Source of the DNA: Myxococcota bacterium
GTDB lineage: Bacteria; Myxococcota_A; UBA9160; UBA4427
DNA: 64,000 nucleotides
Assembly (NCBI GenBank): GCA_046583095.1
Contig: JAYGDB010000222.1
Location: 6,710 to 70,709 of the forward strand
Reading direction: 5' to 3'
Shown here: positions 25,867 through 64,000 of the stretch, one piece after another
Layout: each line of letters starts with the position of its first letter
How positions within the stretch are numbered: the stretch's first letter is position 1
The notes under the pieces: generated by a model
Databases searched by the model: none
What the model saw: only the letters and a program-made list of their open reading frames with translations
Told to the model about the DNA's origin: nothing
Position numbers and translations under genes: made by a program

Positions 25867-27710
25867 TCTCGACTCTCGAAGAGCTTCGCGGCCGCGGTGT
25901 GCTCTCGCCCCTCGACGATCGGTTCGCGCGTTCGATGACGCGTCTCGCTTCAGACGAGTGTCCGGAGGTGCTGCTCGCAGCTGCGCTGGCAAGCCGACAG
26001 GTGGCTCGGGGAGATGTATGCGTCGATCTGGCGTCTCTCGTCGAGGCATCGGATTTCGCCGAGGACGGCGAGGCCGTGACCTGGCCGCCTCTCGAGCCGT
26101 GGCTCGAGAGGCTTTCGACGAGCCCGCTCGTCGCCACAGGGGCGGACGGCTCCCCGGTGACGCCGCTGGTCCTCGACCGGTCGGGTCGACTCTACCTGCG
26201 CCGACTGTGGGAAGACGAGCAGTGGCTCGCCCAGGAGCTGACGGCTCGTGCGGCACACAGCTCCGATGCGGATGACGCGGACGCGTTGCGTGCCAGCATC
26301 GAGCGCCTGCTGCCGGTCGGCGGTTCGGAAGCAGAAGAGGCCCACTGGCCGCGGGTGGCGGCGGCAATCGTCGTCTCGCGCCGGCTGTGCGTGATCTCGG
26401 GTCGCCCCGGAACGGGAAAGACGACCACCGCAGCTCGTCTGCTCGCGGTTCTGGTCGAGCGAGCGCTGAGGTCTGGGCGGCCCGCACCCCGAATCGCGCT
26501 CGCGGCACCCACTGGCAAGGCGGCCGCCCGCCTCGCTGTGGTCATCGACCGGATCCGGAGCGAGATCGACTGCGCCCAGACGGTTCGTGACGCGATCCCC
26601 AGCGAGGCGGCGACGCTCCATCGCCTGTTGCGTGTGAACCCGCGCGCGCGCCCGGGACGTCGGGCCGTGGCCGAGCTGCGGACGGACGTCGTGCTGGTCG
26701 ATGAAGCCTCGATGGTGGATCTGGGGATGGCCGCGCGTCTCGTCAAGGCGTTGCCGAAGCATGCGAAGTTGATCCTACTGGGCGACGCGGACCAACTCGC
26801 GTCCGTGGAGGCCGGCAGCGTCTTCGCAGATGTCTGCGGCCCGCAGCGCGCTCCCGAGTACGGCGACGAGATGGCGTCGTGGATCGCCGAGGCGAGCGGG
26901 CAGTCCGTCCGCGTCGCCGCGTCGGGGGCGACCGCGATGCGGGAATGTGTCGTGACCCTGACGACGAGCCATCGCTACGGAGAGCAGAGCGGCATCGACG
27001 CACTCGCCCGGGCGATTCAGTCGGGTGACGGTCCCGGGGCTCTGGAGGTGCTCGCCGACGATGCGTTCCCCGACGTCCGGTTGGCGCCGCCGGCTGCCGA
27101 GGACGAGCTTCGCAACGCGATCCTCCGCGGTTACGGCCTCTTCGCCGGGGCCACCACGCCGCGCGAACAGTTGCTGGCCCTCGAGCGTTTCCGGGTGCTG
27201 TGCGCGGTGCGGGAAGGGCCGTTCGGCGTCAAGGCGTTGAATCAGGAGGTGGAAGCGGTGCTAGTGCAGTCGGGATGCCTCGCCCGGGCGCCGCGAGGCG
27301 CCGCCGGTGTTGCTGCCGGCCGTCCCATCCTCGTCAACCGGAACGCGCCGCACCTCGGGCTCTACAACGGCGACGTGGGCATTACCGATCCCAGCGGACG
27401 CGCTCGCGCCTTCTTCGAGGGCGGTGTCGGGGGCCTCCGCAGCTTCGGGATCGCCCGCCTTCCGGCCCACGAGTCCGTTTTTGCGATGACGGTTCACAAG
27501 AGCCAGGGCTCGGAGTTCGATGAGGTGAGGCTGATTCTGCCCGATGACCCGATTCCGTTGCTGACGCGAGAACTCGTCTACACCGCGGTCACGCGCGCGA
27601 GAGAGAAGGTGGTCGTGCATGCGCGCCCTGAAGTCTTGACGGCCGCAATTGCGCGCAGAACCGCGCGGGCGTCGGGGCTGCGGGACGCCTTGTGGGGCCC
27701 GCCCCGCTGA
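25863..27710 (+). CDS. recD: Exodeoxyribonuclease V alpha subunit
   Basis: SGRPGTGKTT, APTGKAAARL, DEASMVD, GDADQLASVEAG, NGDVG, AMTVHKSQGSEF; ATGA overlap with recB. Confidence 0.96.
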   Translation: MISTLEELRGRGVLSPLDDRFARSMTRLASDECPEVLLAAALASRQVARGDVCVDLASLVEASDFAEDGEAVTWPPLEPWLERLSTSPLVATGADGSPVTPLVLDRSGRLYLRRLWEDEQWLAQELTARAAHSSDADDADALRASIERLLPVGGSEAEEAHWPRVAAAIVVSRRLCVISGRPGTGKTTTAARLLAVLVERALRSGRPAPRIALAAPTGKAAARLAVVIDRIRSEIDCAQTVRDAIPSEAATLHRLLRVNPRARPGRRAVAELRTDVVLVDEASMVDLGMAARLVKALPKHAKLILLGDADQLASVEAGSVFADVCGPQRAPEYGDEMASWIAEASGQSVRVAASGATAMRECVVTLTTSHRYGEQSGIDALARAIQSGDGPGALEVLADDAFPDVRLAPPAAEDELRNAILRGYGLFAGATTPREQLLALERFRVLCAVREGPFGVKALNQEVEAVLVQSGCLARAPRGAAGVAAGRPILVNRNAPHLGLYNGDVGITDPSGRARAFFEGGVGGLRSFGIARLPAHESVFAMTVHKSQGSEFDEVRLILPDDPIPLLTRELVYTAVTRAREKVVVHARPEVLTAAIARRTARASGLRDALWGPPR

Positions 27711-31589: not shown

Positions 31590-32276
31590 TCAGTCCCTGA
31601 GCGCGAACTCCACGGGAAGCTCGAACGCGAGGTCGTCGGCCTCGAAGTGGGCGGGGACCGGTCCGAAGGGTGCGGCCCGCTTCGTGATCCGCAGCGCGTG
31701 ACGATCGAGGACCCGAGAGCCGGAACTCTCGGCGACCTGGCTGCTCTGGATCCGACCGTCGCGGTCGATGCGAACGCGTACCACGACGGTTCCCTCGACG
31801 CGCTCGTTTTTCGCCCGAGGCGGGTAATCGAGAACGGCGACGACCCGGGCATGCAAGTCGCTGAAGTAGTCGCTTCGGAATTCACCGGCCGGCTCGGTCT
31901 CGCCACCGTTCTGGAGATCCGCACCACGCGAGTCCCCGGCGGCGGCAGGCACCGCACCGGCGGCGACGTCGGGCAGCGGCTGGCTCTCGGTCTCGATGCG
32001 CGGCGCTGCTGCGGGGGTTGGCTCCCGGGTCGAGGACGGACGGGGAGGAGCTACCGGACGGGCTCTCGCCACTACCGCGGGTGGGGGAGCGGGCTCGGCG
32101 GCGGGCGTCCCCAAGGCAATGCGAAGCCGGGAAGCGGTACTCGCCTTGGCCTGTGGTTCCCCGATGCGCGCGAGGTCGGAAGACGTCAACGCGAGAAGCA
32201 GGAAGGCATGCAGTCCGATGGCCACGAGACCGGCGACGAGCCAGTCTGCCAGCCGGATCCGATCTTCAGCGGACAC
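31590..32276 (-). CDS. tonB: Energy transducer TonB
   Basis: TM helix with His, Pro-rich linker, YPPRAK..EGTVVV..SSG..LD C-terminal domain. Confidence 0.88.
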   Translation of the reverse strand: MSAEDRIRLADWLVAGLVAIGLHAFLLLALTSSDLARIGEPQAKASTASRLRIALGTPAAEPAPPPAVVARARPVAPPRPSSTREPTPAAAPRIETESQPLPDVAAGAVPAAAGDSRGADLQNGGETEPAGEFRSDYFSDLHARVVAVLDYPPRAKNERVEGTVVVRVRIDRDGRIQSSQVAESSGSRVLDRHALRITKRAAPFGPVPAHFEADDLAFELPVEFALRD

Positions 32277-32652
32277 GGCGCGTCACCAGTTCGACGTCGG
32301 GAACGCCCGCCTCGTCGAGTTGCTCCAGCAGGGGCAGGAAGATTCGGGCCGGGACGTCTCGGTCCGCGCGAATTTCGAGGCCCCCCGCCGCGCTCAGCTT
32401 GCGAACTTCGGTTTGAGAGAGCATCCGGTCTCCCCACACGATGCCCCCGGTCGAGTCGAGCACCAGGACCGGCAGGTTGCGGTCGGGACGCGTCGCGTCG
32501 GCGCTGGCCGTCGTGGGAAGCTCGATCGAGGTCGCCTCGGGCGGGCGCAACGTGCTCGTCAGCATGAAGAAGATCAGCAGCAGGAAGACGACGTTGATCA
32601 GCGGGACGACATTCTCGTTGCGCCGGGGTCGGCGCTGGGCTGAGAATTTCAC
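32266..32652 (-). CDS. exbD: Biopolymer transport protein ExbD
   Basis: VPLINVVFLLLIFFML, IRADR. Confidence 0.88.
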   Translation of the reverse strand: MKFSAQRRPRRNENVVPLINVVFLLLIFFMLTSTLRPPEATSIELPTTASADATRPDRNLPVLVLDSTGGIVWGDRMLSQTEVRKLSAAGGLEIRADRDVPARIFLPLLEQLDEAGVPDVELVTRRVR

Positions 32653-33044
32653 GGCGCGTCTCGGCGCTCGAGCGCGACGTCCGAGACTCCGCCCTGCTCG
32701 ACGGCCTCGAGGGTGTCGACGATGGCCTGTAGCGTTGCGTCCGGGGCCGCAGCCACCACCACGCTGCGGCCGTCACGCTTGGCGTGAGCCGCCGCGGCGA
32801 CGAGTTCTCGCGTCGAGACGATCCGCTCGTCGAGTCGCGCTTTGCCGTCGTCCTCGATCACCACGCGCAGGAAGTCGGTCTGGGGTGCGGCTTGCGCGTT
32901 GCCCGCCCGCACGACCAGCGGCAGCGACCCCTCGACGTCGAAGCGACTCGCGAGCATGAAGAAGACGAGCAGCAGGAAGACGACGTCGATCAACGGCGTC
33001 AGGCTGGGCTTGCGCCGTTTGCGTAGAGGGGGTTCAAAGTGCAC
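32649..33044 (-). CDS. exbD: Biopolymer transport protein ExbD
   Basis: SLTPLIDVVFLLLVFFML. Confidence 0.9.
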   Translation of the reverse strand: MHFEPPLRKRRKPSLTPLIDVVFLLLVFFMLASRFDVEGSLPLVVRAGNAQAAPQTDFLRVVIEDDGKARLDERIVSTRELVAAAAHAKRDGRSVVVAAAPDATLQAIVDTLEAVEQGGVSDVALERRDAP

Positions 33045-33735
33045 GCGGGGATCCGGCGGGTCGCAACCGCGCTTGTTCCACCTCGTCGTTCGGGCTCTGC
33101 TCCGGGGTCGGAGCGTTGAGGACGCGGGTCACCGCGTCGCTCATCGTGCGCCGCACGCGATCGACCTGCGACTCGAACCACGCCAGTGCGGCCATCGCGG
33201 GGACGGCCACCGCGATCCCCACCGCGGTGGTGAGCAACGCCTCCCAGATGCCGCCGGAGAGAAGGCTCGGATCGACCCTGGCGCCGGCTTCTTCGAGACG
33301 CATGAACGCGCGAATCATCCCGAGTACGGTTCCCAGCAGCCCGAGCAGCGGAGCGAGGTTGCCGATCACCTCGAGGCCACGGAGGTTCGACTCGAGCGAT
33401 CCGATCTCCGCGTCGCCGGCGCGCTGCACCTCCTCGCGCACCGCCTCCGCCGACAGATCGTTCCGCTGGCGTTCCGTCAGCGCGATCGTGAGGACGCGCG
33501 CGATCGGGCTCGGCATTTCGCTCGTGACGGTGAGCGCGCGCGTCGCGTCTCCACTGCGGACCGATGACAGGACGTCCTCGAGCCAGGCCCGGCTCCAGAT
33601 TCGAAGGCGAGTGAACTGGTGGAGCTTCACCAGGATGATCGAGACCCCCGCCAAGGAGAGAAGCAGCAGGACGCCCATCACCCACCCGCCGCGCGCGACG
33701 AGTTCGAAGACCTGGGGGGCGAGGGCCGACTCCAT
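33034..33735 (-). CDS. exbB: MotA/TolQ/ExbB proton channel
   Basis: APLLGLLGTVLGMI, GGIWEALLTTAVG. Confidence 0.92.
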   Translation of the reverse strand: MESALAPQVFELVARGGWVMGVLLLLSLAGVSIILVKLHQFTRLRIWSRAWLEDVLSSVRSGDATRALTVTSEMPSPIARVLTIALTERQRNDLSAEAVREEVQRAGDAEIGSLESNLRGLEVIGNLAPLLGLLGTVLGMIRAFMRLEEAGARVDPSLLSGGIWEALLTTAVGIAVAVPAMAALAWFESQVDRVRRTMSDAVTRVLNAPTPEQSPNDEVEQARLRPAGSPRAL

Positions 33736-33823
33736 GGGGAGTGTTTCCGTTCGAAGGGTACGAAACCCGAGACGGTATCAGGCCGCGCAGACGGAGTCGC
33801 GGGTCTCGCGGTGGGTTTGCCGA

Positions 33824-35896
33824 TCAGTCCGAGGCCGGCTCGCGCTCGGGACCGTAGAACGGGCTCGACCAGGCAGCGCCGTCGATCTGCCGCACTCGCA
33901 GGTAGACGTACTCGCCCGCCGCGAGGGCCGGGATCTCGCGTTCTCCCTTCCAATCCAGGACGTCGTCCGCGTCGCTCGGCAACGAGGCGGTCAAACCCGT
34001 GCGGATGAAGTCGATCCCTTCGATGGGCGCGGTTCCGGCGATCTCATATCGCAGGAGCTGTGTGCCCGCTTCGGTGGGCGCTGACAGGCGGACGTCGAGA
34101 TAGATCCGGGGACCGTTCGTCGCGTAGGTGGCCCGCGCGCGCAGGGCCGCGAGCACGGCGTCGCGGGTCCGCTCCTCGGTGTAGAGGGCCGCCAGGCCGC
34201 TCGCCCCCGAGGCCGAAACCCATGCGAGCCCCGGGTGTCCGTCGTGGCTGTCACTGCTGCCGATGAAGCCGAAGCGGTAGCCGAGCTTCAGGGCGTCTCG
34301 AACGAAGTTACCGGCGACGGGGCTGTAGATCGGCTGGGGCGAGTCCGGGGCCTCGCTGCTTCCGTGTACGGAGACGATCTCGGTGACGGGTTCGAGCTCG
34401 GGCGGCGGCGCATAGGTCCAGTTCGTCGAGACGGGTCCCCCCGCAGAGTGATGCGCGAAGGTGAGTGCAGGCTGCCCCTCCAGGGCGCGCCAGAGTTCGT
34501 CGGGCGTGTCGAAACGTGGATCGATCGAACTGAGCACCTCGCCCTCGTCGCGGAAGTACAGAACGTGCCGGTGTCCCTGCAGCCAGCTCGTCCACTCGTA
34601 ACCAAGCAGGGTGACGAAGCGTCCCGGCTGGTAGTGGCTCTTGGCCGCCGCGCGGATCTGACTCCACATCTCCGGGTTCGCGTCGAGGAAGAGCAGACCC
34701 CAGTGGTCGTGATCCGTCAGGGCCGCGACGTCGAGGGCCGCAACATCCCGGGCGTAGTCGTAGAAGTCCGACGGGGTGCCGGTGCCGTCCGAGAGATGGG
34801 AGTGGCCGTGCAGATCGGCCCACAGCACGTGGCGCACGCCCCGGCGCACCACGAGGGGATTCGATTCGGCGGCGAGGGGGCCTCGTTCGGTCTCGGCCAG
34901 GAAGCGAAGCCGGTGGATTCCCTCGGCTTTCGCCCGGCCGACGATCGATCTGCGCCCGCGATCGGCGGCGCGGAACGCGATCCGCTCGGGCAGGCCTGTG
35001 ACTCCCGGCGCCTCGATGGAAATTTCGCCCTCCCAGCTCCTGCCGTTCACGCTGGGATCCGCGTTTCCCTCGGAGTCGAGCAGGGCGAGGGTGATGCGCA
35101 CCTCGTCGCCCGGCTCGGCGGTCGACGTTACGGTGGCGATCAGCCACCCGGGCTGGCTCGCCCGCACGAGAACGCTCGGGCTGTCCGGAAGCAAGCTGCG
35201 AACGCCGTCGCCATCCCCGTCGACGGCGATCCAGAGTCGCGACACCGATTCCGCGAAGCGATCGACCCGGGCGCCTGCGGCTCCGGCGCCATACACGATG
35301 TGAATCTGCTCCCCCGGCTCGAGCCCCCGGCCTCGAATCTCGATCACCATCAGCTGTGGCGCGACGAGGAACGCGTCCAGCAGGACGCCCTTCGCATCCG
35401 TGCTCACCTCGGTATATCCCGACGCGTCTTCCCATTGCGTCTGGGGATCGTCCCACTCCCAGAAGGGAGAGATCTGCAGGAACACGGTGCCGCCGTCCGC
35501 GACGCCAAGGGGGCCGGCCTCGTAGACGAGATGGAAGCGATTGCGCGACTCGGCCTCGACGATGTGCACGCCCTGGTCGCTGCGAGCTGCGGCCACGAAG
35601 TCGCCGCCGGGCGCCATCACGAGCACCTGCTCGAGCCATGCGCGTCCGCCGCCATCCGAGGCATGCCGCGGGGTCGTGAGATCTTCGATCAGAGGTTCGA
35701 CGGCGTCGGGATGTGCGTCGGCGGAGAGGGGTCCGAGCGGAGGCGAGGTCGAGGGAGCCGGAGCTTGTGAACCGGGCTCGGGCTCCGCCCCACACGCCAC
35801 GAGCCGCAGCGCGACGACGGCCAGCAGAGCCGCCTGCCGCGGTAACGCGCAACGGGGCGCGCGAGCTCTCACCTGACTGCGACTCCTGGCGTCCAA
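33824..35896 (-). CDS. PHP-like metallohydrolase (CehA/McbA, DUF3604-like), probable lipoprotein
   Basis: WADLHGHSHLSDG, LTDHD, GYEW, HRHV, GFIGSSDSHDGHPG, AWSSP; lipobox-like LVACG; exact start uncertain. Confidence 0.82.
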   Translation of the reverse strand: MDARSRSQVRARAPRCALPRQAALLAVVALRLVACGAEPEPGSQAPAPSTSPPLGPLSADAHPDAVEPLIEDLTTPRHASDGGGRAWLEQVLVMAPGGDFVAAARSDQGVHIVEAESRNRFHLVYEAGPLGVADGGTVFLQISPFWEWDDPQTQWEDASGYTEVSTDAKGVLLDAFLVAPQLMVIEIRGRGLEPGEQIHIVYGAGAAGARVDRFAESVSRLWIAVDGDGDGVRSLLPDSPSVLVRASQPGWLIATVTSTAEPGDEVRITLALLDSEGNADPSVNGRSWEGEISIEAPGVTGLPERIAFRAADRGRRSIVGRAKAEGIHRLRFLAETERGPLAAESNPLVVRRGVRHVLWADLHGHSHLSDGTGTPSDFYDYARDVAALDVAALTDHDHWGLLFLDANPEMWSQIRAAAKSHYQPGRFVTLLGYEWTSWLQGHRHVLYFRDEGEVLSSIDPRFDTPDELWRALEGQPALTFAHHSAGGPVSTNWTYAPPPELEPVTEIVSVHGSSEAPDSPQPIYSPVAGNFVRDALKLGYRFGFIGSSDSHDGHPGLAWVSASGASGLAALYTEERTRDAVLAALRARATYATNGPRIYLDVRLSAPTEAGTQLLRYEIAGTAPIEGIDFIRTGLTASLPSDADDVLDWKGEREIPALAAGEYVYLRVRQIDGAAWSSPFYGPEREPASD

Positions 35897-51709: not shown

Positions 51710-52936
51710 TCAGGCGAAGGCCTTGCGGATCCGGTCGATGGCCTCGTCGACGTTCTCGTGGGAGTTGAAGGCCGAGATTCGGAAGTATCCCTCGCCGGCG
51801 GGTCCGAAGCCGGAGCCGGGTGTGCCCACGACGTGGGTCTTCTGCAGCAACTGGTCGAAGAAGTCCCAGGACGTGAGGCCGGCGGGAGTGCGAAGCCAGA
51901 CGTAGGGGGCGTGCTCTCCGCCGAAGACCGTGAAGTGCGCCGACGCGAGCCCTTCCCGCACGCGGCGGGCGTTCTCCATGTAGTAGGCGACCTGTTCGCG
52001 CGTCTCGGCGGCACCTTCGGGTGAGAACACCGCCGCCGCGCCGCGCTGGACGATGTACGGCACCTCGTTGAACTTCGTGGCCTGGCGCCGCGACCAGAGG
52101 TCGTGGATCGGCACTCGCTCGCCGCCGGGGGTCGTTCCGTTCAGCGCCCGCGGCACGACGGTATAGGCACAGCGGACGCCGGTGAAACCCGCGCGCTTCG
52201 AGAAGCTCCGCATCTCGATCGCGCATTCCTGCGCCCCGTCGATCTCGTAGATGGAGTGGGGGAGGGCAGGGTCCTGGATGAAGGCGTCGTAGGCTGCATC
52301 GAAGACGATCACGGTGTCGTTCTCGCGTGCCCACGCGACCCACTTCGCGAGGTTCTCCTTGGACGCGACGGCGCCGGTCGGGTTGTTGGGCGAACACAGA
52401 TAGGCGAGATCGACCCGCTCGCTGGGAGGCTCCGGCGTGAAGCCGTTCTCCTCGGTGGCCGCCAGGTAGTGGATGCCCGCGAAGATGCCGCGCTCGTCGG
52501 CCTCGCCCGTGCGTCCCGCCATCACGTTCGTATCGACGTAGACCGGGTAGCTCGGGTCGGTCACGAGTACCGAGCACTCGCTGCCGAAGATCTCCTGGAT
52601 GTTGCCGCTGTCCTGTTTGCTGCCGTCCGAGACGAAGATCTCGTCGCTCGAGAGCTCGACACCCCGGGATGCGAAGTCGCCCTGGAGGATGGCCTCGACG
52701 AGGAAGTCGTAGCCGTTCTCGGGTCCGTAGCCGTAGGCCTGCTGCAGCTGGTCTTCGACGGCCGCGTGCATGGCCCGGCCGATGGCCGGAGCCAGGGGGA
52801 GAGTGACGTCGCCGATCCCGAGCCGAATCACACTTGCATCGGGATGTGCCTCCGAGAAGGCGCGTACACGCCGTATGATCTCGGGGAAGAGATAGCCGGC
52901 GACGAGCTTGCGGTAGTTCTCGTTGATCTTCGCCAT
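51710..52936 (-). CDS. dapL: LL-diaminopimelate aminotransferase
   Basis: [48 protein letters not shown]. Confidence 0.95.
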
Positions 52937-53814
52937 CAGCGTGGAGCGAGCGCCTCCAGGATCGTCAGGTCGGGGCCGGGCTGCCCGTCGGGTCGGAACG
53001 GTTGAATGCAGACATGGTCGGCGCCCGCATCGTGATGCGCCTGGATTCGGTCGCCGATGGCCTTCTCGTCTCCCCACGCGACGATGGCGTCGACCAGGCG
53101 GTCGCTGCCGCCGTCGGCGAAATCGGCATCGTCGTAGCCGAATTGACGCAGGTTGTTCTGGTAGTTCGGCAGACGCAGGTAGGTCGTCATGTTCGCCCGG
53201 GCGATCTTTCGCGCCTTCGACGGATCGGTCTCGAGCAGCACCATCTGCTCGGGACACAGCCAGGCGTCGGGACCCATCACCTGGCGCGCTCGCGCGGTGT
53301 GCTCCGGCGGGACGAAATAGGGATGAGCGCCGCGGGTACGCTCGGCGGCGAGCCCGAGCATCTTGTCGCGCAGGGCGCCCAGGACGATCGGGGCGTCCTG
53401 CTTGGGATTCGTGCCCATGTAGAGGGCGGCGTCCAGTGCATCGAGTTGTTTGCGCATGGTCGTGACGGGCTTTGTGTACTCATGGCCGCGCACCTTCGAG
53501 ACCAGGTGCTCGTGCGAGACGCCGAGGCCCAGGACGAAGCGGTCCGGAGCCAACTCGGCGACGGTCTTGTGGATCGCCTTCAGGGTCATCGCGTCTCGCG
53601 CGTAGATATTCGCGATGCCGGTCGCGAGGACGAGCCTCTCCGTCTCGGCGGCCAGGAACCCGATGAACGAGAACGGGTCGCGGCCGACGGCCTCGGGGAT
53701 CCATAAGGCGGAGTAGCCCCACTCCTCGATGCGCTGCGCGAATGCGGCAGCCTCGGGCGCCGAGAAGGCGTCCAGCCAGCTCCACACTCCCAGCCGTCCG
53801 ATTTCGGTGCTCAT
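52936..53814 (-). CDS. F420-dependent LLM-class oxidoreductase (TIGR03620-like)
   Basis: [52 protein letters not shown]. Confidence 0.88.
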
Positions 53815-53927
53815 CCGGTTCTCCTCGAGAAAGTCGAGTTCCTGGACGCATCAGCTTACCCCACGGGTCTCGGGTGGGCCTCGTCCGGCCCGGGGCTGCG
53901 GGATATGCAAGACTCGGCTTCGCGGTG

Positions 53928-54518
53928 GTGTCCGAACGAACGAAACAACTCCTCATCGGGCTCGTCGCAGCGGCTGTGCTTGTGATTTCGGTTGGCTGGT
54001 TTGGTAGCGACTCCCTCGAGCGGGACAACGATTTCTGCAACGCCTGTCATCTCGAGCCCGGGCTCCCGCTGCACATCGACATCCGCGAAGACTTCGATGC
54101 CCGTCCCGTGGCGAGCCTGGCAGGAGCGCACGCGGCAGTGATGCGCCCGGCCGGCGGGCCCTTCCTATGCATCGACTGCCACGGCGGGGTGGGCTTGCTC
54201 GGCAGAGCTCGCGTCAAGGTGCTCGCCGGCAGGGACGCATTCTGGTGGGCGGTCGGGCACTTCGAGGAGCCCACCGGAATGCGGTGGCCGCTCTGGGACG
54301 CGGATTGCCGGCAGTGTCATCCGAACTTCGGCGAGGGGACGGACGCGACATCGGCCAACCCGCCGTTCCACGCGCTCGGCGTACACAACGTCGAACTCGG
54401 CGTGTCGTGTGTGGAATGCCACCTGTCTCACGAGACCGGTGGCGACGAAGACCTGTATCATCTGCGCCCGGTCCGCGTGAGAGCACAGTGCGCGCGGTGC
54501 CACGCTGAATTCGAGTGA
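53928..54518 (+). CDS. Membrane-anchored pentaheme cytochrome c (NapC/NrfH-like)
   Basis: N-terminal TM helix followed by five CxxCH: CNACH, CIDCH, CRQCH, CVECH, CARCH; GTG start approximate. Confidence 0.85.
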   Translation: MSERTKQLLIGLVAAAVLVISVGWFGSDSLERDNDFCNACHLEPGLPLHIDIREDFDARPVASLAGAHAAVMRPAGGPFLCIDCHGGVGLLGRARVKVLAGRDAFWWAVGHFEEPTGMRWPLWDADCRQCHPNFGEGTDATSANPPFHALGVHNVELGVSCVECHLSHETGGDEDLYHLRPVRVRAQCARCHAEFE

Positions 54519-54587
54519 TCCCGATGTTGCTTCTTGAGGAGACAGGTGGGCAGCCCCGGTTTCAGAGACAATCGAGAGGAGGGGAGC

Positions 54588-55394
54588 GTGATCGCACGCG
54601 GCCTCGCAGCGATGGCTGCGGCTCTACTGGTGTTCGTGTCGAGCGGGGCGAGCGGCTATCCCGGCGGGACGCCTGACTTTCAGACCGATGTGGCGCCGTT
54701 CTGCGCGGCTTGCCACTCGTCCGTGAACGTCGAATCGCTCGAGGGTGCCGGGGCCCGCGCCGAGAAGGAGCTTTCGGCGAACAAGCACTTGGCGCTGATT
54801 CTCCAGGGGCAGCGCCCGTACGAGAAGCTCGCGGTGGACGAGCGTGCGACCCTCGCCCGACAGATCCAGGCCGTCGAAGCGAATTCGAAGATCGAGTTCG
54901 TCGATTTCCCGTCCCAGGTGAAGAGCGGCGAGAGCTTCAGCATCACCGTGCTCGTGACGGGTGGCGCCGGTCCGGTGGTGGCTGTCGGTCTCGTGGACCG
55001 GGCTCACCGCTGGTACGCCCGCCCGGCGTCGTCCGCGGGCTGGGGCGTCATCGGCGCGCCGACCGTGATTGGGCCGGACGGCAAGCCCCAGAGCGACTGG
55101 CTCGAACGACGGCCCCAACAGCTGGGTCGTAGCGTCACCTTCGTGAACGTTACGGGTGTCCACTCGGACGCAGCCGCGGGCCAGTGGAGCCACTCGAAAA
55201 TCATCTACACGCTGCGCGCGCCGGCGCGGCCGGGCAACTATCCGATCGTCGGCGCCTACTTCTACGGCACCGAGAAGGCGACGGCGCTCGGGTCGAGCGA
55301 CCACCCGGTCTACGGCAAGCAGCCGCTCGGCGGCTATGGCGGCAAGTCCGGCCGGATCCAGTTCACCCAACCCCTGGTCATCACCGTCAAGTGA
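54588..55394 (+). CDS. Secreted single-heme (CAACH) protein with beta-rich C-terminal domain
   Basis: Strong GGAGG-type RBS before GTG, signal peptide, CAACH near the mature N-terminus, beta-strand-rich remainder. Confidence 0.75.
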   Translation: MIARGLAAMAAALLVFVSSGASGYPGGTPDFQTDVAPFCAACHSSVNVESLEGAGARAEKELSANKHLALILQGQRPYEKLAVDERATLARQIQAVEANSKIEFVDFPSQVKSGESFSITVLVTGGAGPVVAVGLVDRAHRWYARPASSAGWGVIGAPTVIGPDGKPQSDWLERRPQQLGRSVTFVNVTGVHSDAAAGQWSHSKIIYTLRAPARPGNYPIVGAYFYGTEKATALGSSDHPVYGKQPLGGYGGKSGRIQFTQPLVITVK

Positions 55395-57520
55395 GCGCGC
55401 CTGTGACGGGGAGGCGTTCGTGGACGGTCGTAGGGGCACTGCTGCTTTCGCTGGCATCGGGTCCGCTCGGCCTCGTGGCATGCGGCGACGACGAATTCGA
55501 GGCCGTGGCCCCGGCGCCGGTGCGGGAGGCGACACCCGCGAAGTCAGCGCGGAGCCGGCTCCGGAACGTCGCCCGGGATGTCGACGATGCCCGGCTGCGG
55601 GGCGCGGCGGCGGATCCCGCGAACTGGCTCAGCCACGGGCGCGACTACGCGGAGCAGCGCTTCAGTCCGCTCTCCCAGATCCACGCCAACAACGTGAGCC
55701 GCCTCCGGCTTGCCTGGTCGTTCGACACCGGCTTGCGGCGCGGACACGAAGCCACACCGCTCGTGGTGGATGGGGTGATGTTCGTGACCGGCTCTTGGAG
55801 CGTCGTCTTCGCCCTCGACGCCACCAGGGGGGAGGTCCTGTGGACGTATGACCCCGAGGTTTCGGAAGAAGTGGGACGCAAGGCATGCTGCGACGTCGTG
55901 AACCGCGGCGTTGCGGTCTACCGGGGACGCGTCTTCGTGGGAGCGCTCGACGGCCGGCTCATCGCGCTCGATGCCTCGACGGGCGAGCTGCAGTGGGAGA
56001 CGGTGACCGTCGATCAGGGCCAGCCGTACACGATCACCGGCGCGCCGCGGGTCGTCGCGGGCAAGGTGATCATCGGCAATGGCGGCGCCGAATTCGGTGT
56101 TCGCGGCTACGTTTCGGCCTACGACCCCGAGAACGGCGAACTCGTTTGGCGGAGCTACACGGTTCCGGGCGATCCCAGCGAGCCCTTCGAGTCGAAAGCC
56201 CTCGAGGAGGCCGCGTCGACCTGGAACGGCGAGTACTGGAAGCTCGGCGGCGGCGGCACGGCCTGGGACTCGATGGCCTACGACGCGGAACTCGGTCTCC
56301 TGTACGTCGGAACCGGCAACGGATCCCCGTGGCGCGCCGAGCTGCGGAGCCCCGGCGGCGGTGACAACCTCTTCCTGTCTTCGATCCTTGCCCTCGACCC
56401 GGAGACGGGCGAAATCCGCTGGCATTACCAGACGACGCCTGCCGACAATTGGGACTTCACAGCCACTCAGCACATGATCCTCGCCGAGTTGCCGATCGAT
56501 GGCGTACTGCGGAAGGTGATCATGCAGGCGCCGAAGAACGGCTTCTTCTACGTGCTCGACCGCGTCACCGGTGAATTCATTTCGGCCGAGGAGTACGTAC
56601 CCGTCAGCTGGGCAGACGGCGTGGATCCCGCGACGGGTCGGCCGATCCCGAACCCCAGCGGCGACTACGAGGAGGGCCTCGCCCTCGTGACGCCCATGTA
56701 CCTCGGCGGCCACAACTGGCAGCCGATGTCGTACAACCCCGTCACCGGGCTGGTCTACATCCCGGCGCAGGAGATGGCCGGGCCGTTTCGCAGGGATCCG
56801 CTCTGGGAGTTGCGGAGCGGGGAGTTCAACACCGGCGTCGACGCCACCGTTGGCACGCTCTTCTCCCGGGAGATCGTCTCGGGACACCTGCTCGCCTGGG
56901 ATCCGATCGAGCAGAAGGAAGCCTGGCGGCACCCCCACGGCATGCCCTGGAACGGCGGCACGCTCACGACTGCGGGCAACCTCGTGTTTCAGGGGACCGC
57001 GGATGGGCGCTTCCTCGCGCTGCGTGCCGACGATGGCTACCTGCTGTGGCAGAGCCACTCGGCCGGCACCGGTATCGGTGCCGCGCCGATCAGCTACCGG
57101 GTCGGGGGTGTGCAGTACGTCTCCGTCGTTGCGGGTTGGGGGGGCGCCTTCGCCCAGGTGGCCGGCGACGCATCCGCCGCGGCGCGGGTCGAGTCGAAGG
57201 GACGCGTGCTTGCCTACGCACTCGTCGACGAGACGATCACCCCGGAGGTCGTGGAATCCATGCTCGCCGCCCGGGATCCCGAGGTCGCCAAGGCTTCCGA
57301 CCTCTACCACAACTGGTGCTGGCGCTGTCACGGCGCGAATGGAATCGCCGGCGGCGTGAATCCCGACCTTCGAGACAGCGCCGCCGCTCTCGGCGACGCC
57401 TTCGTCCCGATCGTCTCGAACGGCCTCGCGGGCACCTCGATGCCCGGCTTCGCCCAGTGGCTCTCGGAGACGGAGATCCGGGTGATGCAGAAGTACCTGA
57501 TCGACCTGGCTGCCGATTAG
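55391..57520 (+). CDS. PQQ-dependent quinohemoprotein alcohol dehydrogenase (type II), probable lipoprotein
   Basis: GTGA overlap with upstream gene; lipobox-like LVACG; ACCDVVNRG, GNGGAEFGVRG, WDFTATQ, QAPKNGFFYVLDR; C-terminal CWRCH...MPGF cytochrome domain. Confidence 0.93.
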   Translation: MSAPVTGRRSWTVVGALLLSLASGPLGLVACGDDEFEAVAPAPVREATPAKSARSRLRNVARDVDDARLRGAAADPANWLSHGRDYAEQRFSPLSQIHANNVSRLRLAWSFDTGLRRGHEATPLVVDGVMFVTGSWSVVFALDATRGEVLWTYDPEVSEEVGRKACCDVVNRGVAVYRGRVFVGALDGRLIALDASTGELQWETVTVDQGQPYTITGAPRVVAGKVIIGNGGAEFGVRGYVSAYDPENGELVWRSYTVPGDPSEPFESKALEEAASTWNGEYWKLGGGGTAWDSMAYDAELGLLYVGTGNGSPWRAELRSPGGGDNLFLSSILALDPETGEIRWHYQTTPADNWDFTATQHMILAELPIDGVLRKVIMQAPKNGFFYVLDRVTGEFISAEEYVPVSWADGVDPATGRPIPNPSGDYEEGLALVTPMYLGGHNWQPMSYNPVTGLVYIPAQEMAGPFRRDPLWELRSGEFNTGVDATVGTLFSREIVSGHLLAWDPIEQKEAWRHPHGMPWNGGTLTTAGNLVFQGTADGRFLALRADDGYLLWQSHSAGTGIGAAPISYRVGGVQYVSVVAGWGGAFAQVAGDASAAARVESKGRVLAYALVDETITPEVVESMLAARDPEVAKASDLYHNWCWRCHGANGIAGGVNPDLRDSAAALGDAFVPIVSNGLAGTSMPGFAQWLSETEIRVMQKYLIDLAAD

Positions 57521-57544
57521 GCTCTCGGGCTGCGCGGCAGCCGG

Positions 57545-59008
57545 CTAGCTCTGCTTCTGGAACTCGCCCGCCGCGAGTCGGCGCATGTAGTCGTCGAGGT
57601 CCGCCTTGACCCTGCCGGTGAGCAGCAGGATGCCGGCGATGTTCGGGAAGGCCATGCCGAGGATCATGAGGTCGCCAAACTCGACAACGGCCTCCGCGGC
57701 GAAGATGGCGCCGGCCCAGGTGAAGAGCAGGAAGATCAGCTTGTAGAGGAGCACGCTGCGCAGGCCGAAGAGCTGCACCCAGCACTGCTCGCCGTAGTAG
57801 CTCCAGGAAATCATCGTGCTGAACGCAAAGGCGACGGCGGTGATCGAGAGCACGATCGGGAACCACGGAAACACCGTCGCGAACGCGAAGGAGGTCATCT
57901 GGATCCCGGTGCCGGCGTCGGGGTGCGCGTGGGCGCCGGTGACGACGATCACCGCGCCCGTCATCGCGCACACGATGATCGTGTCGATGAAGGGTTCGAG
58001 AAGGGCGACCAGACCCTCGCGCACCGGTTCGTCGGTCCGTGCTGCCGAGTGGGCGATCGCCGCCGAGCCGACACCTGCCTCGTTGCTGAACGCCGCCCGC
58101 CGGAAGCCCTGGATCAGGACGCCGACGAAGCCCCCGAGCCCCGCCTGGAACGAGAAGGCCTCTCTCACGACGATGCCGATCGCGGCCGGCACGGCCGCCG
58201 CGTTGATCGCCAGGATCAGCAGGCCCGAGGCGACGTAGATGATGCACATGACTGGGACGAGAACCGAGGCCACCTCTCCGATTCGCTTGATGCCGCCGAT
58301 GATCACCGTCCCCACCGCCAGAGCGAGAAGCAGGCCGAAGGCGACGGCGCCCGCGTCGCTGCCGAGCCACGGCGCGCTCTCCTCGAAGGTCTTCGCCACC
58401 TGGGCGAAGGCCTGGTTCGACTGGTACATGTTGCCCCCGCCGAAGCTCCCGCCGATGCACATCACTGCGAAGACCACCGCGAGGAAGCGCCCGAGTCCGC
58501 CCAGGCCCATTTCGGCGAGCCCGTCGCTCAGGTAGTGCATCGGTCCGCCCGAGATGCGCCCGTCCGCGCGCAGCACGCGGTACTTCTGGCCGAGGGTGCA
58601 CTCGACGAATTTCGAACTCATGCCGAGGAAGCCGGCAACGACCATCCAGAAGACGGCGCCCGGGCCTCCGACGCCCACCGCGAACGCCACGCCGGCGATG
58701 TTGCCGAGGCCGACGGTGGCCGAGAGGGCGGCCGAGAGTGCCTGGAAGTGGGAGATGTCGCCGGTATCGCCGGGCTGGCTGTAGCGGCCTCGCACGCAGT
58801 CGATCGCGTGACGGAATCCGCGAAAGTTGATGAATTGGAAGCGGATGGTGAAGAAGAGGGCGCCCAGCACGAGCCACAGCACGACGATCGGGAGCTGGAT
58901 TTCCGCCTCGCTCCCGTTGTCCCAGAAGGCGACGTCGAAGAACAGGACGGCGTCGATGGACGCGACGATCCGCTCCTTGAAGAACGACTCGAGGCTGTCG
59001 AGAATCAC
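57545..59008 (-). CDS. Alanine/glycine:cation symporter (AGCS family)
   Basis: ALSATVGLGNIAGVA, GGPGAVFWM, GGPMHY, FSNEAGVGS, EPFIDTI; GGGGAG RBS before GTG 59008. Confidence 0.93.
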   Translation of the reverse strand: MILDSLESFFKERIVASIDAVLFFDVAFWDNGSEAEIQLPIVVLWLVLGALFFTIRFQFINFRGFRHAIDCVRGRYSQPGDTGDISHFQALSAALSATVGLGNIAGVAFAVGVGGPGAVFWMVVAGFLGMSSKFVECTLGQKYRVLRADGRISGGPMHYLSDGLAEMGLGGLGRFLAVVFAVMCIGGSFGGGNMYQSNQAFAQVAKTFEESAPWLGSDAGAVAFGLLLALAVGTVIIGGIKRIGEVASVLVPVMCIIYVASGLLILAINAAAVPAAIGIVVREAFSFQAGLGGFVGVLIQGFRRAAFSNEAGVGSAAIAHSAARTDEPVREGLVALLEPFIDTIIVCAMTGAVIVVTGAHAHPDAGTGIQMTSFAFATVFPWFPIVLSITAVAFAFSTMISWSYYGEQCWVQLFGLRSVLLYKLIFLLFTWAGAIFAAEAVVEFGDLMILGMAFPNIAGILLLTGRVKADLDDYMRRLAAGEFQKQS

Positions 59009-59158
59009 GCGGTCTCCCCCTGAACTCGTTTCGGGCCCAACCGGACGAACCAGCCGCAGGGGGGAGAGCGGCGGCGCGAGCATACCGCCCGCCCCGCGCG
59101 CTGGCTTCGGGTCCGAACTCACTGCACGCCGCGACTGCCTGCTAAGCTCGCGCCCCGA

Positions 59159-61570: not shown

Positions 61571-61705
61571 GCGCGCATGGTTGCGGCCGATTTGTGCACC
61601 CTCGCCCGGAGACGGGGAAGGGGTGGCTTGACGCCGCGCCGGTCTGCCGTCGTCCGGCGGGGAATGCGTACCGAGAACAGCATGACAGGAAATAGAGGAG
61701 ACCAA

Positions 61706-64000
61706 ATGGTTGGGGGTCGTTCTTCTCATCGTCGCGCCGAGAGGCTCAGGGCATTCGCCGTCGCCCTGATCGTCGCTTCGTCATTCACGGCCACGTCGGC
61801 CTGGGGATTCGAGGCCTTCGACGGCCGCCTGGAAGCGCACGGGGCATTTGTCAGCCAGCTGCGGGCGATGAACGCAGACTTCTCGGAAGACTGGGACGTG
61901 GCCCAGTGGTACAACGTCTTCACCCTCGAACTCGAGTTCGACCTGATCCAGGACACGGTCGGCCCGATCGATCTGCTTTCCGGCTTCATCCGTGCCGAGG
62001 TCCGATACGACTGCGTCTACTCGCGTGGCTGCGGGATGTTCCGTTCGATGAACGCCTTCGGGGATCGATCGAAGAGCCTGCCCCGGCGTCTGATGCCGAG
62101 TCAAGACCGCGTTCGCCACGCAGGCCGGATTCGGATCTTCAACCCGCTGGGCGAGGACGCGAATGGAAACGGCCAACCGGATCCCGGCGAAGACCTGGAC
62201 GGCGACGGCTACGTCACCATCGAGGCCACAACTGGCCGGATCTCCGGTCCGAACACGGATCCGGTCGGGCCCGCGAGGGAGCCGACCCTCTCGCTGTTCG
62301 CGAACGCCACGGGTGCGGACGGCTTCTCAGAAACCCAGAATACGCCGTACTGCTTAGATCCGCCCAGCGCTAACGCGCTCTGCGGTGTGCTCGCCGGCGG
62401 CAGTGTCGTATCCGACACCTGGGAGGACAACGACGACCCCTTCCCGGCCGTTGCTCGTGCGGGCGGTTATGCGGACTTCAAGTGGGCGGGAATCGGCGGC
62501 CCCTGGCTGCCGAAGAATTTCTTCAGGGCGAACGCGGTGGGCTCGAGCACCCCGAATCCGTTCGACAGCAGGACCGGCAGCTACGCGCTGCAAGCCTCGG
62601 TGTACAACGGCTACATCCTCTCGGCCAACGACAACGCGCCCCTGTTCGACGCCGCGGGCGTCCCGATCGATGAGATGGGGATACCCGATGGGGGAGATTA
62701 CAGGGATCGGGTTATCGCTGCGGCAACGAACGGTGGCGAAGACCTCAATATGAACGGCATTCTGGATCCCGGCGAAGACTTCGACGGAGACGGCCTGCTG
62801 GGTCTTGTCGTCGAAGACTTCGACTCAGACGGCGTTCTGGACATCGTCGAAGACTTCGACGGAGACGGTCTGCTGGGTATGGTCGCCGAAGATCTCAATG
62901 GCAACGGCATACTGGATCCCGGCGAAGACATCGATATGGACGGCATTCTGGACATCGTCGAAGACCTCAACGCCAACGGCGTGTTTGACGAAGGCGGGCT
63001 CGCAGCCCGAGGCTTGGCCGAGCTTCCCTATCGCCCGGTTCCGGTCTTCCGGGAGGACGGCGCGGGAATCGGCCAGGCCCAGAACCCGGGAGATGCGCGG
63101 GGCCTGTTCCTGCCCTCGTTGCCGCTGGCCCGCGCGCTCAACGCCGGGAGTCTCTCCCCCATCGAAAACGACTACAACTTCACCCAGAACCAGCGTGCCT
63201 GGAACCGCGGTGCCAGCCAGCGCGACGAGAAGGAGCTGAAGGAGGCCTATCTCGATATCGAACTCTTCGACAACCGGCTGTGGCTCCGCCTGGGCAAGCA
63301 GCACGTGGTCTGGGGCAAGACCGAGCTGATCACTTCTACCGACCAGTTCAACCCGTCCGATGCTGCACTCTCGTCCCTGCCGAGCCTCGAGGAGTCGCGC
63401 ATCGCGCTGTGGTCGGCGCGCGGTGTCTGGTCCTTCTACGAAGTCGGTCCGATCGACGACGTCCGACTCGAGCTCGCGTTCAGCCTCGACAACTACCAGC
63501 AGATCGACATCGGCGCCTGCGGTGAGGCGTACTCGCCGAACATCACGTGTACGCTTACCAATGGTACCTTCGCCCATGGCATTTTCGGCATCGGCCTTGC
63601 CGGCGTCGAGCAGCCCCCGTCTCCCTGGCAGAGCCTCAAGGGCTGGGAGATCGCCGCCCGGCTCGAGTGGCGTTACGACCGCTTCAGCTTCGCGTTGACG
63701 GACTTCTACGGCTACACCGATACCCCGGGCATCGAGCAGTTCAGCACCTACACGCGCAACGTCGATCCGGTCTCGGGCCGCCCGCGCGAGATCTTCTCCA
63801 CGCTATCCACGACCCGCCCGCGCAGGGATCCCTACACCCAAGAGCTTGTCACGAACATCGAGCAGATTGGCACCCAGGGGATCTGCATGACGGGCCGCGA
63901 AAGTGCCTGTCTGAATCCGAAGTTCGATCTCGACGGCGACGGCCTGCTCGATGGAATCGCTGCCGACGGCAGCGGAACCCTCGTCGTCAACCCGTACGAG
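61706..64000 (+). CDS. DUF1302-like large outer-membrane protein (3' truncated by window edge; absent from ORF track)
   Basis: GAGGAG RBS, ATG 61706, signal peptide ending SAWG; no stop seen in the part translated by hand, and the frame appears to run off the window; ELKEAYLDI...LRLGKQHVVWGKTE..TDQFNP motif. Confidence 0.8.
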   Translation, partial: MVGGRSSHRRAERLRAFAVALIVASSFTATSAWGFEAFDGRLEAHGAFVSQLRAMNADFSEDWDVAQWYNVFTLELEFDLIQDTVGPIDLLSGFIRAEVRYDCVYSRGCGMFRSMNAFGDRSKSLPRRLMPSQDRVRHAGRIRIFNPLGEDANGNGQPDPGEDLDGDGYVTIEATTGRISGPNTDPVGPAREPTLSLFANATGADGFSETQNTPYCLDPPSANALCGVLAGGSVVSDTWEDNDDPFPAVARAGGYADFKWAGIGGPWLPKNFFRANAVGSSTPNPFDSRTGSYALQASVYNGYILSANDNAPLFDAAGVPIDEMGIPDGGDYRDRVIAAATNGGEDLNMNGILDPGEDFDGDGLLGLVVEDFDSDGVLDIVEDFDGDGLLGMVAEDLNGNGILDPGEDIDMDGILDIVEDLNANGVFDEGGLAARGLAELPYRPVPVFREDGAGIGQAQNPGDARGLFLPSLPLARALNAGSLSPIENDYNFTQNQRAWNRGASQRDEKELKEAYLDIELFDNRLWLRLGKQHVVWGKTELITSTDQFNPSDAALSSLPSLEESRIALWSARGVWSFYEVGPIDDVRLELAFSLDNYQQIDIGACGEAYSPNITCTLTNGTFAHGIFGIGLAGVEQPPSPWQSLKGWEIAARLEWRYDRFSFALTDFYGYTDTPGIEQFSTYTRNVDPVSGRPREIFSTLSTTRPRRDPYTQELVTNIEQIGTQGICMTGRESACLNPKFDLDGDGLLDGIAADGSGTLVVNPYE
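62738..62989 (+). repeat. Seven tandem EDx(D/N)x(D/N)G repeats (36-39 bp units) inside the DUF1302-like gene
   Basis: EDLNMNG, EDFDGDG, EDFDSDG, EDFDGDG, EDLNGNG, EDIDMDG, EDLNANG; recurring DNA units such as gaagacttcgacggagacgg and ctggatcccggcgaagac. Confidence 0.88.

Follow-up and report, generated by a model that had tools for sequence, protein, structure and literature searches.

An operon of a Myxococcota bacterium joining a putative lipid-anchored quinohemoprotein alcohol dehydrogenase to an NrfH-like pentaheme cytochrome and a heme protein of an undescribed family

How an alcohol dehydrogenase (ADH) dependent on pyrroloquinoline quinone (PQQ) hands on its electrons is the question raised by a three-gene locus of an uncultured, marine-type Myxococcota bacterium (assembly GCA_046583095.1, contig JAYGDB010000222.1), which is located at positions 53928-57520 of a 64-kb stretch of DNA (64,000 nucleotides, nt) that was analysed as a whole and is referred to here as the window. 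The PQQ-ADHs are sorted into three textbook types by how the electrons pass onward. The operon found in the window joins a type II-like ADH with a predicted lipid anchor, an NrfH-like pentaheme cytochrome, and a heme protein of an undescribed family. The three open reading frames (ORFs), numbered here in the direction of transcription, are most simply read as one operon for a periplasmic alcohol-oxidising branch, in which electrons would pass from the ADH (ORF3) via ORF2 to ORF1 and on to quinone; we favour this linear chain tentatively, as a possible rather than a probable reading. The genes, their motifs and the two bounding genes are the following.

53928-54518, + strand: ORF1, 196 amino acids (aa), putative membrane-anchored pentaheme c-type cytochrome with an NrfH/NapC-like core and a fifth, C-terminal heme
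54036-54050, 54168-54182, 54306-54320, 54408-54422 and 54489-54503, + strand: CxxCH motifs of ORF1, from residues 37, 81, 127, 161 and 188
54578-54582, + strand: Shine-Dalgarno-like GGAGG, read from the sequence, 5 nt ahead of the GTG start of ORF2
54588-55394, + strand: ORF2, 268 aa, GTG start, predicted secreted monoheme protein of an undescribed family
54702-54716, + strand: CAACH heme motif of ORF2, beginning at residue 39
55391-55394, + strand: GTGA overlap, the GTG of ORF3 (55391-55393) over the stop TGA of ORF2 (55392-55394)
55391-57520, + strand: ORF3, 709 aa, predicted lipoprotein and type II quinohemoprotein (PQQ and heme c) ADH
55472-55483, + strand: putative lipobox L-V-A-C of ORF3, residues 28-31, after a hydrophobic stretch (N-terminus ...GPLGLVAC-GDDE)
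57317-57331, + strand: CWRCH heme motif of ORF3, beginning at residue 643, inside the C-terminal Cytochrome_CBB3 domain
52936-53814, - strand: upstream boundary, divergent luciferase-like oxidoreductase (Pfam Bac_luciferase), backbone gene outside the module
57545-59122, - strand: downstream boundary, convergent Na:alanine symporter (Pfam Na_Ala_symp), backbone gene outside the module

In the recount, the CxxCH motifs of the three co-oriented genes were distributed 5+1+1, as reported in an initial annotation of this DNA, and these are all seven such motifs in the 57 called genes of the window (20,019 aa). The reported overlap of the last two genes by GTGA was found as described. Alternative starts are a GTG at 53874 for ORF1, giving a protein of 214 aa, which is the length of its closest database relative, and a second in-frame GTG at 55403 for ORF3. 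Since both bounding genes lie on the opposite strand, the trio is a self-contained three-gene unit. A scan of 53600-57800 for promoters and terminators gave no signal above shuffled controls, and no genes for PQQ synthesis, cytochrome maturation or quinone synthesis were found in the window. For comparison, related loci were taken from species-representative genomes as the best 80 of 159 confirmed ORF2 relatives obtained with a query alignment of 9 sequences, and each was viewed over 8 kb on either side of ORF2. Their genes were called with a codon log-odds caller trained on tblastn-confirmed homologues, the start codons being heuristic; the called genes were clustered and the cluster representatives annotated, and the presence of ORF1 and ADH was scored by tblastn (E ≤1e-5).

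The dehydrogenase ORF3 reached 663.2 bits against TIGR03075 (PQQ-dependent dehydrogenase, methanol/ethanol family; cut-off 480.05), covering profile positions 3-530 of 530, and its residues 64-704 matched the solved type II quinohemoprotein ADHs 1kv9 (E 5.2e-222), 1yiq (2.5e-211) and 1kb0 (2.4e-194). Its similarity to type II (742 bits) exceeded that to 8gy2, the dehydrogenase subunit of a type III enzyme (548 bits, E 3.9e-163), and type I enzymes scored lower against it than the solved type II enzymes did. The alignment with the latter runs end to end, with a PQQ propeller, a Cys-Cys pair and a heme c domain at the C-terminus in common: the vicinal Cys166-Cys167 pairs with the Cys-Cys of 1kv9 and is kept in 21/21 homologues from the related loci, and the Cytochrome_CBB3 domain (residues 632-703) scored 34 bits over a cut-off of 27. 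The same cytochrome domain weakly matched the PedF profile TIGR04494 (E 2e-6). On the basis of these alignments ORF3 is assigned to the type II quinohemoprotein ADHs, in agreement with the initial annotation.

Characterised type II ADHs are typically soluble periplasmic proteins without a lipid anchor. ORF3 is unlike them in its lipoprotein-type N-terminus and in sharing an operon with two c-type cytochromes. The lipobox-like LVACG noted earlier corresponds to L-V-A-C at residues 28-31, and is taken as real because it stands after a hydrophobic stretch. A hydrophobic N-terminus ending in a small residue and Cys was present in 19 of the 21 ADH homologues that adjoin ORF2 in other loci (strict lipobox in 13, relaxed in 6), the two remaining N-termini having been lost to heuristic start calls. 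In ORF3 and its homologues, the lipobox Cys leads into a linker of low complexity, about 35-45 residues long. ORF3 is thus predicted to be lipid-anchored, which is unusual in comparison with the characterised type II members. In passages of PMC8348568, the known type II ADHs are described as Pseudomonas-type enzymes with azurin as acceptor. A twin-arginine translocation (Tat) signal had also been considered for ORF3 (G-R-R-S-W, within 55391-55420), and this was dropped because the two Arg are not conserved among the ADH homologues; the N-terminus is read as a Sec/lipoprotein signal.

ORF1 had been proposed to be a NapC/NrfH-type cytochrome, of which the general architecture stood and the formal family membership did not. 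In Pfam, Cytochrome_C7 and Paired_CXXCH_1 were above cut-off, whereas the scores against Cytochrom_NNT (PF03264, NapC/NirT; 18.9, cut-off 24.1) and the NrfH profile TIGR03153 (27.4, cut-off 134.2) were below. Within the ORF1 family, 40 of 44 members matched PF03264 at E ≤0.01 (best 3.3e-8). The best solved-structure match of ORF1 was NrfH (2j7a_C, E 0.0015), covering the helix with heme 1, and hemes 2-3, and this weak alignment pairs K97 and D103 of ORF1 with K82 and D89 of NrfH. According to passages of PMC2762525, Lys82 of NrfH contacts a quinol analogue, and the interaction with quinol is lost in the CymA variant K91Q, which is equivalent in position; Asp89 of NrfH is described in part of PMC3279761 as binding quinol. 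In the alignment of 44 ORF1 sequences, K97 was invariant and D103 conserved in at least 90%. Of the heme-binding residues, the five His and nine Cys were invariant and the tenth Cys, C161, was conserved in at least 90%; five further His (49, 68, 148, 153 and 168) were also invariant, so that a second His ligand is possible for every heme.

The AlphaFold2 model of ORF1 was too poor to use, with a predicted local distance difference test (pLDDT) value of 57.3 overall and 85-93 in the helix of residues 3-32. A fold search of the PDB with this poor model placed NrfH first, though not significantly (E 2.6), and a profile search of the PDB with the ORF1 family alignment gave no significant match. 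In comparison with NrfH, NapC and CymA, the N-terminal helix, the NrfH order of the first four heme motifs, and the Lys and Asp positions are alike. ORF1 is unlike these proteins in having five hemes instead of four, in lacking the Met of the NrfH heme 1 motif CxxCHxM, in a heme 1-2 spacing about 20 residues longer, and in that its gene partner encodes a monoheme beta-sandwich protein and not a reductase. We conclude that ORF1 probably works like a NrfH/NapC-type quinone-pool cytochrome with an extra heme, and do not file it in that family.

The middle protein, ORF2, matched no Pfam or NCBIfam family above cut-off, and searches of solved structures by sequence and by family profile gave no significant match. 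A word-index search returned 918 relatives from Myxococcota-type metagenome bins, of which the named ones were all 'hypothetical protein' except one 'cytochrome c553'. An exhaustive search of 1.84 billion representatives reached relatives with identities as low as about 35%, in no more than 162 clusters (at 50% identity), of which some 30 were full length; the family is compact. As judged from these searches, ORF2 belongs to no described family, and in this respect its description as an uncharacterised adaptor was upheld. In the family, H67 and Y78 were invariant, C39, C42 and H43 were conserved at 99% and K66 at 91%, and the family alignment contained no conserved Met. His67 is an ordinary candidate for the sixth ligand of the heme. 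The AlphaFold2 model was of high confidence (pLDDT 90.1), in which the heme motif is surrounded by short helices and residues 83-99 form a long helix, followed by an immunoglobulin (Ig)-like beta-sandwich. A Foldseek search of the PDB with this model returned generic Ig-like folds only, with template modelling (TM) scores ≤0.36. Having a confidently predicted fold without a close solved counterpart, ORF2 is a reasonable target for structure determination and spectroscopy.

A speculative lead concerns the heme ligation of ORF2. A signal-peptidase-type site (A/V-x-A/G) stands directly ahead of Tyr24-Pro25 in all 70 ORF2 proteins with an intact N-terminus, and the distance from Tyr-Pro to the first heme Cys is fixed at 15 residues. 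The predicted mature protein is in this respect like the luminal domain of cytochrome f, with an N-terminal Tyr-Pro, a CxxCH 15 residues on, and then a beta-sandwich. In cytochrome f, the heme is ligated by the alpha-amino group of Tyr1. If the heme of ORF2 were likewise ligated by the alpha-amino group of its mature N-terminal Tyr, the protein would be a bacterial, non-photosynthetic counterpart of this rare ligation. Cytochrome f was among the fold matches of ORF2 (ranks 35 and 43, over 253-275 columns) but with TM scores of 0.23-0.24 and root-mean-square deviations of 13-16 Å, and the cytochrome f family was not among the 25 Pfam families listed for 69 ORF2 members. Unlike cytochrome f, ORF2 has the invariant His67 to offer as an ordinary sixth ligand.

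Whether ORF2 is an electron carrier at all may also be asked, since it could be a heme enzyme, a sensor or a binding protein with a sandwich related to choice-of-anchor V or Reeler-like domains. A weak match to the NCBIfam model choice_anch_V (NF041895) was seen in 66 of 69 members (E ≤1; best E 3.4e-8), with the matched regions including the beta-sandwich as well as the heme stretch near the N-terminus; a feature search of a protein atlas led, again as a lead only, to clusters with 13-29% Reeler members (score 0.88-0.89). The sandwich moreover has many invariant charged and aromatic residues, including D137, R141, R175, E229 and R256. All choice_anch_V matches, on the other hand, remained below the cut-off of 42 bits (16.8 for ORF2 of the window; 33.7 for the best member, at profile positions 37-131 of 150), so the link is taken as a remote lead and not as membership. 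The sandwich has no conserved Cys, His or Met for a second metal site, and, as expected of a carrier, the ORF2 gene is flanked by those of a multiheme membrane cytochrome and a dehydrogenase with a heme of its own. A role other than electron transfer is considered highly improbable. Weak matches to Cytochrome_CBB3 were found in 17 of the 69 members, none better than E 0.0085.

A search among longer proteins for fused forms of ORF2 gave a single hit, a protein of 995 aa with a PQQ domain (P0391), which stems from a close relative of the window. In-frame and out-of-frame stretches alternate across its ORF2 and ADH parts, and it was therefore rejected as a gene-calling artefact, a frameshifted run-through of ORF2 and ADH.

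How firmly the three genes belong together was seen from the 80 related loci, where the presence or absence of each gene was observed directly, as were the protein identities and the operon structure. A single chromosomal backbone was common to 80/80 loci, in the order aminotransferase, FAD-linked oxidase, luciferase-like oxidoreductase, ORF1 (where present), ORF2, ADH (where present), symporter, and ADP-forming acyl-CoA synthetase. The luciferase-like cluster (c1, 69 members) was located upstream of ORF1 or ORF2 in most loci, and the symporter cluster (c5) came after ORF2 or ADH. In the 72 loci with both flanks visible, the complete trio was found in 21, ORF1 and ORF2 only in 35, and ORF2 alone in 16, while ADH without both cytochromes was found in none (0/72). 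ORF1 was present in 59 of the 76 loci with at least 700 bp upstream (54 of the 59 within 250 bp), and ADH in 21 of the 74 loci with at least 1000 bp downstream (20 of the 21 within 250 bp). Gene order and strand were identical in every trio. Overlaps of 4 nt between ORF1 and ORF2 were called in 17/52 loci, and overlaps of 4 nt or 1 nt between ORF2 and ADH in 13/21, both on heuristic start calls.

Since 35 of the 72 loci have the pair but no ADH, and no locus has the ADH but not the pair, ORF1 and ORF2 form the broadly retained core, to which the ADH is an optional addition. The conservation of the trio across genomes, as anticipated in the initial annotation, thus holds for 21 of 72 loci in the same order, but along one inherited backbone. 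Separation of the cytochromes from the PQQ enzyme, which had been named there as speaking against the module, was found in part, in the 35 loci with the pair only and the 16 with ORF2 alone; for the same reason the cytochromes are not an adaptor dedicated to the ADH, and this part of the earlier description was given up. The heme motif and all checked conserved residues of ORF2 were kept equally in trio, pair and solitary contexts, the few misses being N-termini shortened by heuristic gene calls. Since the solitary ORF2 keeps these residues, it functions without neighbours encoded beside it.

The same counts allow the ADH to be regarded as a mere neighbour, held in place by inherited synteny or shared regulation and donating to some other acceptor, such as a cupredoxin or a class I cytochrome c encoded elsewhere, so that only ORF1 and ORF2 would cooperate. 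The ADH is missing in 51 of the 72 loci while cytochrome genes stay, its state changes at least seven times on the ORF2 tree, and unrelated cytoplasmic genes (GST-like, P450, thiolase) likewise come and go in the backbone. In addition, the ADH has its own heme c, and in passages of PMC8348568 type II enzymes elsewhere appear without a dedicated operon partner. Set against this are the placement of the ADH immediately after ORF2 in 20 of 21 loci, often with stop/start overlaps, the complete lack of loci with ADH and without both cytochromes, and the conserved lipid anchor with its long linker, which would suggest a fixed location in need of a mobile partner. We therefore hold this explanation to be improbable, though less so than a role of ORF2 outside electron transfer.

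The history of the locus was followed on a tree of 81 ORF2 proteins, built quickly by maximum likelihood. On this tree the presence of ORF1 changes at least three times, one change being a clade of 15 species without ORF1, and the presence of ADH at least seven times, as counted above. Trios were found on both sides of the midpoint, and the pairwise distances of the ADH tracked those of ORF1 (r 0.82, 17 loci) and ORF2 (r 0.80, 18 loci), on which grounds the trio was probably ancestral at this site and the ADH lost repeatedly rather than inserted repeatedly. These correlations were similar to those between flanking genes. A Fisher test for the association of ORF1 and ADH (p 0.0035) ignores shared ancestry and is not relied on. 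The pattern of presence and absence proves less than the raw counts suggest.

Several related loci had further genes in or near the module. In L009 (8815-11142, + strand), the slot after ORF1-ORF2 holds a 4Fe-4S ferredoxin-like gene and an aldehyde:ferredoxin oxidoreductase (AFOR_N/AFOR_C, E 1.7e-145), i.e. an aldehyde/alcohol-related redox enzyme at the position of the ADH. Six loci, L044 (10931-12202), L048, L049, L054, L059 and L075, have a cytochrome P450 gene (cluster of 7) immediately behind the ADH on the same strand. In L063, L068, L071 and L078, genes for a TetR regulator, a KshA-like Rieske oxygenase and an AurF-like protein come after the ADH in differing combinations. Such neighbours hint that the ADH of some lineages forms part of a catabolic region. 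In L067, L068 (2063-3127, - strand), L071 and L078, ORF1 and ORF2 are kept apart by a MoaA-like radical SAM gene that is read from the other strand; in L063 such a gene stands directly before ORF2, and ORF1 lies upstream of it at a distance of about 4 kb. ORF2 is immediately followed by a GST-like gene (cluster of 10) in L006, L013, L031, L043 (3473-4267), L050, L055 and L060; in L006 it stands between ORF2 and an ADH only 49% identical to that of the window. The ADH homologue of L003 (8987-10925) was found in at least five tblastn pieces with shifted coordinates, representing either a decayed gene or long-read indel errors, and was scored as present. Metagenome-assembled genomes (MAGs) titled Spirochaetales/Spirochaetaceae, Opitutales or Candidatus Binatia (L013, L018, L022, L026, L029, L032, L039, L049, L052, L053, L057, L060, L072, L079, L080 and others) share the Myxococcota backbone and nest among the Myxococcota in the ORF2 tree; the taxon names on these records look unreliable.

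What the three products would do together can be outlined as follows. The lipid-tethered ORF3 would oxidise alcohol at its PQQ and pass the electrons to its own heme c domain; ORF2, a soluble periplasmic monoheme protein, would carry them onward to ORF1; and this pentaheme protein, anchored in the inner membrane and bearing the Lys and Asp of the NrfH quinol pocket, would deliver them to the quinone pool. The ORF1-ORF2 pair may be an older, general link between periplasm and quinone pool that is used by other donors where the ADH is absent, the ADH being an optional donor plugged into the pair. The contacts among the three proteins, the direction of flow, and the reduction of quinone are those parts of the outline that we infer. 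What favours the linear chain is that each of the three products has a place in it, that it accords with the translational coupling, and that the ADH was never found without both cytochromes. For ORF1 with ORF2, complex prediction, run without controls, scored 0.18 and 0.14 (mark, 0.32), which speaks neither for nor against binding.

A functional precedent is the type III ADH, which reduces ubiquinone (8gy2) and likewise combines a PQQ/heme c dehydrogenase with a membrane-associated multiheme cytochrome c. The cytochrome subunit of type III ADH is triheme. Unlike it, ORF1 is an NrfH/NapC-like pentaheme protein with an N-terminal helix, and an extra monoheme gene lies between those of ORF1 and the ADH. 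No family named after a type III cytochrome subunit was among the Pfam and NCBIfam matches of ORF1 and ORF2, and no search with such a subunit was made. In the acetic acid bacteria, according to passages of PMC8348568, the type III enzyme consists of a PQQ subunit and a membrane-attached multiheme c subunit, and it is this arrangement that serves as the precedent.

A number of points weigh against the linear chain. As ORF2 is found with ORF1 but without the ADH (35/72 loci) and alone (16/72), it must have other partners. The co-occurrence of the trio is largely inherited and not independently re-assembled, since all 80 loci share the backbone, and an independent-pairs test of ORF1 against ADH presence had three usable pairs and no power. 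ORF1 scored under the NapC/NirT and NrfH cut-offs and its structure model was poor. Cultured myxobacteria use menaquinone, and the potentials of PQQ and of the heme c of type II ADHs are well above -74 mV. The reduction of quinone would thus be uphill if the organism is menaquinone-only, -74 mV being the value for menaquinone, and +112 mV that for ubiquinone, in passages of PMC2762525. NapC/NrfH-type proteins are, in part of PMC3279761, described as quinol dehydrogenases and not as quinone reductases, and for ImoA, once proposed as a quinone reductase, the activity reported in a preprint was that of a quinol oxidase (bioRxiv 10.1101/2022.01.10.475773).

In a rival arrangement, the electrons run the other way through ORF1. 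ORF2 would then be a general carrier to an acceptor encoded elsewhere, either a terminal oxidase or a periplasmic reductase, fed in parallel by ORF1 and the ADH; ORF1 would be a quinol dehydrogenase feeding ORF2, which would serve the ADH as cytochrome c or azurin serve other PQQ-ADHs. A single role of ORF2 covers the trio, the pair, and the solitary gene with its intact heme motif, and no uphill step to menaquinone is needed. Two parallel inputs in one tightly coupled operon are nevertheless less economical than a linear pathway, an ADH with ORF2 alone was not found in any of the 72 loci (an absence of little statistical weight), and no acceptor is encoded nearby, either in the window or within 8 kb of ORF2 in the related loci. 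The lack of a conserved Met in ORF2 and its invariant His67 further suggest bis-His ligation. Hemes with two His ligands usually have a low potential, which would be uncommon in a protein donating to an oxidase and counts against such a role. The quinol-oxidising direction, in turn, agrees with that given for NapC, NrfH and CymA in part of PMC3279761 and for ImoA in part of the preprint (10.1101/2022.01.10.475773). Taken by itself this arrangement is doubtful, yet it is nearly as likely as the linear chain.

A pairing similar to that of ORF2 and ORF1 is MtoD and ImoA (Slit_2495) of Sideroxydans lithotrophicus, for which the proposed wiring is alike. MtoD is a small class I cytochrome. No sequence relation to this pair was found, and unlike it ORF2 is an Ig-like sandwich and ORF1 pentaheme, ImoA being tetraheme. 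In PedE/PedF, ExaA/ExaB and MxaF/MxaG, a dedicated c-type cytochrome gene stands beside a type I PQQ-ADH or methanol dehydrogenase. ORF2 is, in contrast, unrelated to these class I cytochromes, and ORF3 has a heme domain of its own. What we rate as new here is a PQQ dehydrogenase with dedicated cytochrome partners, one of them from an uncharacterised family. Literature searches did not find this gene combination described, which is weak evidence as most subscription journals lie outside their coverage.

If the linear chain is true, it would open a new path for electrons from alcohol oxidation in the periplasm to the membrane, ORF1 would be a possible NapC/NrfH-type quinone reductase (a direction under debate for the Mto pathway of Sideroxydans), and a function would be given to the ORF2 family, so far 'hypothetical' in the named records. 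This family comes from uncultured Myxococcota, a group of which the respiration is little known. It is further conceivable, although we consider it rather unlikely, that the trio represents a fourth architectural type of PQQ-ADH system, made of a tethered type II-like ADH, a shuttle of new fold, and a reversed NrfH-type quinone reductase; this would be a three-protein alcohol:quinone oxidoreductase in Myxococcota.

Elsewhere in the window, a complete RecC-RecB-RecD operon (Exonuc_V_gamma, UvrD-helicase/PDDEXK, RecD_N) was identified at 19103-27707 (+ strand), and a TonB-ExbD-ExbD-ExbB cluster adjoining a 658-aa DUF3604 protein at 31593-35800 (- strand). A large protein at 61577-64000 (+ strand), running off the end of the window, contains acidic, Asp/Gly-rich repeats of about 15-20 residues, which are DxDGDG-like and resemble calcium-binding repeats, and these are followed by a DUF1302-like region.

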